Positions 43,512-43,696 of a stretch of 44,071 nt of DNA are shown piece by piece; the stretch's first letter is position 1, and every line of letters starts with the position of its first letter. The translations under genes and the position numbers were made by a program. Source of the DNA: Escherichia phage vB_EcoS-UDS3lw. Below the pieces are notes generated by a model. It searched no databases. It saw nothing but the letters and a program-made list of their open reading frames with translations, and was not told where the DNA came from. The stretch is from sequence record PQ658967.1. One strand, 5' to 3'.

Positions 43512-43522
43512 AATTTACGCGC

Positions 43523-43621
43523 ATTGGTTGCCGATATGGGAATTCCCATATCGCTAAGAGATTAATTTCTACGCGCATTGGTTGCCATTTTGGGTGTTCT
43601 TATCTGGTCGTATTGGTTGCC
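43523..43621 (-). promoter_or_regulatory. three copies of ATTGGTTGCC motif flanking a 22-bp perfect palindrome
   Basis: Copies at 43523-43532, 43577-43586, 43612-43621; palindrome CGATATGGGAATTCCCATATCG at 43532-43553. Confidence 0.5.
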
Positions 43622-43639
43622 GTGTAGCGTAAATATAAT
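43611..43639 (+). promoter_or_regulatory. candidate rightward promoter with perfect -10 TATAAT (43634-43639)
   Basis: -10 read directly; -35 region weak and overlaps the third motif copy. Confidence 0.3.
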
Positions 43640-43696
43640 GAATAGTTATGCAATAAAACTGCATAAACCAAACGGGACAAAAAGCGGGACAAACAG

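Follow-up and report, generated by a model that had tools for sequence, protein, structure and literature searches.

Direct repeats beyond the helicase-primase gene of a Dhillonvirus: candidate regulator boxes at the border of a probable replication origin

What is the role of the 129 bp that directly follow the helicase-primase gene of Escherichia phage vB_EcoS-UDS3lw (PQ658967.1, positions 43512–43640)? A sequence-only reading of this locus had pointed to direct repeats, a perfect 22-bp palindrome and a TATAAT hexamer, and had described the arrangement as typical of a phage early control or origin region. Our study followed up this proposal in the window, by which we mean the whole stretch of 44,071 nt, a complete Dhillonvirus (HK578/SO-1-like siphovirus) genome of ~44 kb. 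Dhillonviruses are coliphages that are isolated very often and are in use for phage collections and biocontrol, and a literature search found no descriptions of Dhillonvirus promoters, regulators or an origin.

The ends of the window fall inside a non-coding gap of ~660 bp located 3' of the helicase-primase gene, with the next gene starting at 102. The collinear annotated phage PTXU06 has an identical start point, and our literature search found no published justification of this start point by mapped ends. As the window was opened within the gap, positions 43512–43640 were read together with 43640–44071 and 1–100. A total of 158 phage records matched the last 1 kb at 80–95% identity, nearly all of them Escherichia or Shigella Dhillonviruses, and an Rfam scan of 43300–44071, with E values up to 1, returned no match. 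The reading that we prefer, and to which we give an even chance on the strength of sequence comparison, is that the 129 bp represent regulator boxes bordering a probable origin, together with an optional duplication that carries the palindrome.

Repeats after the helicase-primase stop codon

The helicase-primase gene (41247–43511, plus strand; 754 aa, AAA_25, phrog_3228) ends with a stop codon at 43509–43511, directly before the repeats, as had been described. The 16-mer ACGCGCATTGGTTGCC was found twice (43517–43532 and 43571–43586) and the third, shorter copy was confirmed as CGTATTGGTTGCC at 43609–43621, yet this picture was incomplete, as there are further copies and these belong to a genome-wide family. 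The exact direct repeat is 17 bp in length (TACGCGCATTGGTTGCC) and the real repeated unit is ~54 bp, with 43501–43545 and 43555–43599 being 80% identical over 45 nt. Unit 1 (43501–43554, plus strand) comprises the end of the gene with its stop codon, box 1 (43523–43532) and the palindrome (43532–43553). Unit 2 (43555–43608, plus strand) opens with CTAAGAGATTAA, a remnant of the end of the gene, which reads TTAAAAGATTAA at its true end, followed by box 2 (43577–43586) and a spacer. Box 3, the proximal box (43609–43621, plus strand), starts 28 bp before the start of a conserved 13-mer.

The repeats are copies of a 9-bp core, ATTGGTTGC(C). When up to two mismatches were allowed, the longer 13-mer form CGCATTGGTTGCC generated 8 matches compared to 1.7 expected, and none of 100 shuffles reached 8. 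The copies overlooked previously were an inverted box, CGCATTGGTTGCC on the minus strand at 44020–44032, on the far side of the adjoining repeat array, and two boxes on the plus strand across the window junction, at 40–48 and 71–79. The latter two overlap the −35 (TTGCAT, 45–50) and −10 (TATATT, 68–73) hexamers of a promoter-like site (40–79) of the next operon, the first gene of which is the one starting at 102, and they are kept in relatives, including loci L015 and L168. All four copies that flank the origin-like array are of the ...GCC subtype, ending in C (...TTGCC), and they have no −10 hexamer at 16–18 bp, except for a weak AATAGT 18 bp after box 3.

Comparison with relatives revealed a constant proximal box, a palindrome that was seen in only half of the genus and a TATAAT hexamer that is not conserved outside the core genus. 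The core ATTGGTTGC of box 3 was exact in 17 of 18 distinct Dhillonvirus loci, with GTTGGTTGC in the remaining locus (L001), and its distance to the 13-mer was constant. Unit 2 was also found in 17 of the 18 loci, with its box deleted in L006, which harbours one box only, and the inverted box occupied the orthologous place in the 18 Dhillonvirus loci spanning the region. The number of boxes after the stop codon varied from 1 to 3 among Dhillonvirus loci. This variation, together with the relic stop codon in the repeated unit, indicates that at least some copies are by-products of duplication. In L168, with 68% helicase-primase identity, one box overlaps the final codons of the gene, and the 13-mer is directly preceded by two inverted boxes. 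The presence of boxes beside the origin-like block is therefore kept but their arrangement is not, and the boxes of L168 still flank the 13-mer despite a changed orientation, which argues for selection on presence.

The gene-end box of L168 (6419–6427) has a counterpart in L227 (5269–5276). In both cases TTGGTTGC lies within the last helicase-primase codons and codes for LVA in ELVA(S/T)D(E/D)DL, and the non-coding repeats of the window read RALVA in the matching frame.

A genome-wide box family and its candidate binder

The box is over-represented in the genome and favours non-coding DNA, and relatives keep it at orthologous sites. There are 17 exact copies of ATTGGTTGC in 44 kb, compared to ~0.3 expected from length, and 27 matches with up to one mismatch, compared to 12 expected, a number that none of 100 shuffles reached. 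In PTXU06, 12 of the 15 exact copies lie in non-coding DNA, which makes up 8% of that genome. The orthologous places in Dhillonvirus loci are the promoter of the operon that encodes an HTH protein and the helicase-primase, the one to three positions after the stop codon, the inverted copy and the two positions on the next promoter, and the box itself is unchanged from 100% down to 68% helicase-primase identity.

Without the copies flanking the GGGACA array, ten clusters of boxes remain, at window positions 40/71, 605, 3104/3127, 10362/10376, 26468, 29363/29374, 31030/31047, 33986/33998, 37808/37824 and 40710. Every one of these ten overlaps a sigma70-like site (TTGnnn, as TTGCAx or TTGACy, with a spacing of 16–18 bp to TAnnnT) that faces downstream genes, compared to a background in which 3.2% of the TTG triplets of the genome have such a −10 hexamer. 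The four copies flanking the array, boxes 1–3 included, do not overlap core promoter elements in this way. The sequence-only reading had taken the repeats for origin iterons, and this was not borne out, as the ATTGGTTGC box occurs at about ten promoters genome-wide rather than being confined to the origin, and is constant between lineages, whereas the GGGACA-type repeats change together with the helicase-primase.

The placement of the box within promoters is varied. In some it provides the −35 hexamer (ATTGGTTGCAT-17-TATATT, at 40–73 and at 31047), and at 3104/3127 and 37808/37824 it is reversed and found in the spacer and just 3' of the −10 hexamer. At 29363–29382 two boxes form a perfect 20-bp dyad, GCAACCAAcctaTTGGTTGC, over a minus-strand TTGCAA-18-TATAGT site; this is the clearest sign, and we take it as a hint, that the box may be one half of a dimer-binding site. 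Overall, placement of this kind is more in keeping with a protein site of the operator type than with a simple element for RNA polymerase.

This comparison bears on an alternative that we regard as unlikely, namely that the boxes are an extended −35 element read by the host RNA polymerase, with no binder of their own, and that the copies after the gene are inert by-products of duplication. TTGCAx within the box does serve as the −35 hexamer of several promoters, and the duplicated unit does contain the stop codon of the gene and varies in copy number from 1 to 3. Moreover, L227, a lineage of 49% identity that has an HTH_3 protein and no HTH_23 protein, carries four copies of TTGGTTGC, two of which are at promoter −35 positions. 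However, a −35 element neither works in reverse from the spacer or from behind the −10 hexamer nor forms a dyad such as the one at 29363–29382. The proximal and inverted copies beside the array are conserved in the genus though they have no usable −10 hexamer, and L168 retains its boxes beside the array in changed orientation.

If the boxes are instead protein sites, as we infer, the only recognisable candidate for their binder is a 109-aa HTH protein, the equivalent of HK578 gp45, whose gene lies at 40907–41236 on the plus strand. It matched Pfam HTH_23, HTH_28 and Sigma70_r4_2, all above cut-offs, belongs to phrog_9366 and displayed a weak similarity, below cut-off, to sigma-70 ECF region 4. 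The annotation of one well-annotated member of the genus lists no other regulators. The HTH_23 protein was detectable only in box-bearing lineages, and most of the distant lineages have a Cro-type HTH_3 protein in that position and lack the boxes. The putative link between box and protein is only a correlation, one of co-occurrence, and the assignment of the binder is tentative because of the counter-example of L227.

In the distant lineages with the HTH_3 protein, promoters share an AATAC-N4-GTATT-like dyad over the −10 hexamer (L022, ~5065–5095 and ~5590–5625; L024, ~5040–5070 and ~5445–5475), which parallels the ATTGGTTGC boxes.

The proposed arrangement resembles lambda OR/OL and the MotA boxes of T4, in that a short box occurs at many promoters of one phage, often paired 11–31 bp apart, with copies overlapping the −35 hexamer, the spacer or the −10 hexamer, and with a small HTH protein encoded nearby. 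It differs from them in that the box is found here in both orientations and that copies without a promoter bracket an origin-like array. The candidate protein also differs, as it is HTH_23/sigma-region-4-like and a homologue of neither Cro/CI nor MotA, and its sites are candidate sites. A literature search with the sequences of the box and the palindrome returned unrelated primer lists only. A few possible likenesses were set aside: a PdhR/GntR-type ATTGGT half-site; the CytR octamer, GTTGCATT, which misfits the pattern of conserved positions; a FliA-type −10 element, GCCGATAT, at 43530–37, which has the wrong spacing; and TTATGCA, in the A+T-rich block described below, which would be DnaA-box-like (7–8 of 9).

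An optional palindrome and a TATAAT hexamer

The perfect 22-bp palindrome CGATATGGGAATTCCCATATCG is present at 43532–43553, as had been reported; the predicted hairpin has a loop of AATT on a stem of 9 bp. A perfect palindrome of this length was seen in 1 of 200 Markov-shuffled genomes, its DNA fold was −8.2 kcal/mol (z −4.4), and it is single-copy in the genome. It is part of a 54-bp block, running from the first box to the second, relic stop codon, which consists of the palindrome and a 33-bp duplicate of the gene end and box. This block was present in 9 of the 18 distinct loci and in ~75 of the 158 GenBank records, and was absent from the more distant L014, L015 and L168. It looks like a derived, dispensable insertion or duplication, and box 1 and the palindrome would be dispensable since half of the genus is without the block. 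Both filled and empty sites exist; the flanking duplication of 33 bp is atypically long for a target duplication, and deletion between repeats accounts for the presence and absence of the 54 bp equally well. Within the genus, the outer stem and the central four bases of the palindrome vary without compensating changes, so that its symmetry is broken in relatives.

The palindrome had been suggested as an operator for the HTH protein. We rejected a conserved operator of a dimeric HTH protein, given the absence of the palindrome from 9 of the 18 loci and from the outgroups, its single copy and the symmetry-breaking changes in relatives.

An identical palindrome of 22–24 bp (CCGATATGGGAATTCCCATATCGG) was found with unrelated flanks in unrelated phages and prophages (loci L148, L149, L150, L151 and L152). 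Phage 666R9 has a copy inside a KilA-N gene, in which it encodes the residues DMGIPIS, and another lies in the nin region of Hafnia phage Pocitis76. In lambdoid prophages, the palindrome occupies a module junction that precedes hokD by ~200 bp; 983 of the 5426 complete E. coli genomes carry it there. The number of 22-mer matches expected by chance in 2.3 Gb is ~3 in 10,000, and the sharing of the palindrome is therefore real. It recalls REP-like elements and the terminator hairpins that flank extra genes in phage genomes, as a discrete palindrome of 22–24 bp that recurs with unrelated flanks, often close behind a stop codon or where two modules join. Unlike REP or MITE elements, however, it is much shorter, its flanking duplication is 33 bp and one copy lies within a gene (KilA-N). 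As an optional insert that is common to unrelated phages, the palindrome makes the region a real but fairly ordinary one.

Two further accounts of these shared copies were considered and rejected. The non-coding copies are not remnants of a KilA-N gene, as the similarity ends within ~27 nt, and the palindrome was not inserted into the KilA-N gene, as a Proteus homologue of 78% identity aligns without a gap.

The simplest, weakly supported, reading of the palindrome is that it is at most a hairpin on the 3' end of the mRNA. A stronger version, in which the hairpin stabilises the gp45–gp46 transcript at its 3' end or weakly terminates it, and the flanking repeats are incidental, strikes us as distinctly unlikely. 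The palindrome begins 21 nt 3' of the stop codon and folds well, with −15.7 kcal/mol for the RNA of a 51-nt stretch around it that includes the palindrome stem, and in Pocitis76 and one lambdoid prophage it likewise lies 15–25 nt after the stop codon of the upstream gene. Against this, no U-tract follows the palindrome, which is succeeded by CTAAGAGATTAA, and a scan for intrinsic terminators called none 3' of the helicase-primase stop codon, its single call being inside the gene. Half of the genus is without the palindrome, the substitutions in relatives are not compensatory, and the copy of 666R9 is within the KilA-N coding sequence.

The TATAAT hexamer was confirmed at 43634–43639 on the plus strand, at the left edge of an A+T-rich block. 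It is a perfect −10 element, but the hexamers 16–18 bp upstream match TTGACA in just 1 of 6 positions and the bases before it are AAA, with no TG extension. Sixteen of 18 close relatives have TATAAT or TATAGT here, always 22 bp away from the proximal box, and the hexamer was lost in L015, in L168, in distant lineages and in a paralogous array near 16 kb (ori-2). The claim that this hexamer is a promoter pointing into the array thus did not hold, as there is no −35 hexamer at 16–18 bp and no TG, and the hexamer is not conserved outside the core genus; it is better seen as the edge of an A+T-rich, probably unwinding, block rather than as a demonstrated promoter.

Taken as a whole, the model of the sequence-only reading, with repeats as iterons or early-control sites, the palindrome as an HTH operator and the TATAAT promoter firing into the array, appears improbable. 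It gains from the fact that the region abuts an origin-like array, from the −10-like hexamer kept at 22 bp from the proximal box in most close relatives and from the general observation that transcription into an origin can activate it, as in lambda and T7. It loses from the repeats, which are found at promoters genome-wide and are constant between lineages, unlike the GGGACA repeats, from the palindrome, which is single-copy and missing in half of the genus and in the outgroups, and from the hexamer, which lacks a −35 or TG and is lost in L015, L168 and ori-2. In addition, a promoter scan of 43300–44071 called no promoter-like site. What stands of the proposed early control or origin architecture is that an origin-like module adjoins and that sites of a regulatory type are present; the repeats are not iterons, the palindrome is not a conserved operator and the TATAAT hexamer has no −35.

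The adjoining origin-like module

The model origins with which this module may be compared are lambda ori, P4 ori/crr with its alpha primase-helicase, and RSF1010 oriV with the RepA helicase and ssi hairpins. Beside the ACGCGCATTGGTTGCC repeats, and adjoining them, lies an A+T-rich block (43630–43672; 79% A+T), which shares first place in A+T content among the 40-mers of the genome. Within it are the 13-mer GAATAGTTATGCA (43640–43652) and the inverted repeat TTATGCA-N7-TGCATAA (43646–43666). The 13-mer is kept in L022, L024, L027 and L051, relatives at 37–45% helicase-primase identity. Next comes an iteron array (43673–43950) with ten direct copies of CGGGACA and inverted GTCCCG, in which the iteron core and hairpin are repeated as a perfect 127-bp tandem duplication (43697–43823 and 43824–43950). 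Most relatives have a single copy of the 127-bp unit, since their matches span ~942 bp of the 1070-bp query. Compound hairpins are located at 43779–43823 and 43906–43955, and a conserved motif, ACGGCAGCA (43982–43990, plus strand), lies between the hairpin and the next promoter; it was found in the window and in L015, L022, L024, L027, L051, L227 and L228.

Two variations of the A+T-rich block were seen in relatives. The 13-mer GAATAGTTATGCA occurs twice, 21 bp apart, in L022 and L024, and six of 18 close relatives carry the 7-nt loop between TTATGCA and TGCATAA in the other orientation (ATAAAAC or GTTTTAT), as though the small inverted repeat could invert.

The order of the module is A+T-rich block, CGGGACA repeats, compound hairpin, ACGGCAGCA and next promoter, and this layout after the gene is kept in relatives at 37–49% helicase-primase identity. 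The array follows the helicase-primase gene in at least eight lineages, with repeats that differ per lineage (CCGACA, GGGATAA, GGGGATG, CGGACAA, ACTCGCAA and GCTGCCAAC). The arms of the hairpin also change between lineages while their pairing is kept (AGTCT/AGACT, CCTC/GAGG, TCTCC/GGAGA and CATC/GATG), and all six versions, with L015, L022, L024, L027 and L051 compared, fold better than shuffles (z between −2.3 and −4.0). The hairpin at 43906–43955 can be drawn either as a pair of mini-hairpins or as a single long stem, in both cases around a G5/C5 hairpin. Owing to its dyad symmetry it could form on either strand, a property reminiscent of the ssi signals that prime RSF1010.

The helicase-primase itself provides a second line of comparison. 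Its core superposes on RSF1010 RepA (TM 0.69, 3.3 Å). The C-terminal part is the most divergent, with 19–27% identity compared to 47–61% for the core, and residues 666–740 were predicted to have an H-b-H-H-b-b (winged-helix) topology at a pLDDT of ~80 in the model built with an alignment, which was used here, the single-sequence AlphaFold model having a pLDDT of 39. Because RecA-fold matches dominated when Foldseek was run on the full model, the winged-helix assignment is one of topology only. As modelled, this divergent domain fits a specificity domain that would read the lineage-specific repeats. Invariant Cys and His residues of the protein (C246, H252, C271, H273, C279 and H285) resemble a zinc-binding motif, and its acidic tail, DDDLKD, is conserved. 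A sequence search of the PDB found nothing for the helicase-primase and, for its C-terminal part, a weak match only, to ribosomal protein eS25 (E 0.075), and Pfam found nothing on the C-terminal and N-terminal parts.

We infer from these features that the module beside the boxes is a probable replication origin. By analogy, it shares with lambda ori, P4 ori/crr and RSF1010 oriV clustered direct and inverted short repeats, an A+T-rich block and a hairpin palindrome, with P4 a second repeat cluster elsewhere in the genome, and with RSF1010 a RepA-like helicase core. It differs from these origins in that the repeats first pointed out are not iterons and that the second array is inside the tail gene cluster. 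The GC skew of the genome tracks the direction of transcription and gave no pointer to this region.

The second, paralogous array (ori-2, 15960–16270) is flanked on one side by the tail-chaperone frameshift product and on the other by the tape-measure gene. It opens with an 18-bp perfect palindrome of two iterons (15960–77), two bases after a stop codon, and contains direct and inverted CGGGACA repeats, the inverted 13-mer GAATAGGTATGCA (minus strand, 16074–86), TGCATAAA and a hairpin module identical to 43906–43955. It has no ATTGGTTGC boxes, and the boxes would therefore not be needed for the activity of the array. When viral contigs were scanned with a 14-nt version of the 13-mer, the yield was almost exclusively chance matches and one new relative, L051; in the same kind of scan for a second GGGATA-type array, the L024 contig matched at its known array alone.

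The odd position of this nearly identical second array, in the tail gene cluster, would suit another view, in which the whole intergenic region with its GGGACA arrays serves packaging or some other kind of recognition instead of being an origin, and the boxes belong only to the adjacent promoter. The packaging mode in the genus is unsettled, with headful packaging predicted for Opt-212 (PMC9022532) and cos packaging for EE09 (PMC10673088). We consider this view very improbable, as the array follows the helicase-primase gene in so many lineages with repeats that change together with the divergent winged-helix-like end of the protein, the terminase genes are ~4.5 kb away, and the window lacks the cos sequence given for EE09, the sole match to which, with one mismatch, is at 19577.

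Returning to regulator boxes beside a probable origin, we propose that the 129 bp would be the variable left border of an origin-like region after the helicase-primase gene. The ATTGGTTGC(C) boxes may be binding sites for a phage-encoded regulator, the candidate being the HTH protein from the same operon as the helicase-primase. Three direct boxes to the left of the array, one inverted box to its right and two on the promoter of the next operon would form a bracket that encloses the A+T-rich block, the GGGACA repeats and the hairpin. Once bound, the regulator would control transcription into and out of the origin, a role that we propose because no intrinsic terminator follows the helicase-primase gene, and it may also tie the use of the origin to the transcription programme. 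Two bolder, linked possibilities are that the binder, perhaps the gp45-like HTH protein, is both a global promoter factor and a licensing or insulating factor for the origin, and that the 22–24-bp palindrome is a promiscuous element, spreading between virulent Dhillonviruses and temperate lambdoid prophages. We hold these to be quite doubtful; if the first were true, a single 9-bp box would link the firing of the origin to the entire transcription programme of a virulent siphovirus.

An independent experimental link is that HK578 mutants able to evade the OLD defence were mapped to gp46 and the gp45–gp46 promoter, and the authors of that study treat gp45 and gp46 as replication-initiation genes (bioRxiv 10.64898/2026.07.10.737580). 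The feature that was originally flagged is itself of modest interest, and part of it is dispensable. Its neighbouring module is a candidate origin that bears on the work tying replication initiation in HK578 to the OLD defence, and, in a genus otherwise unstudied, mapping the boxes has pointed to one candidate regulator and some ten candidate promoters.
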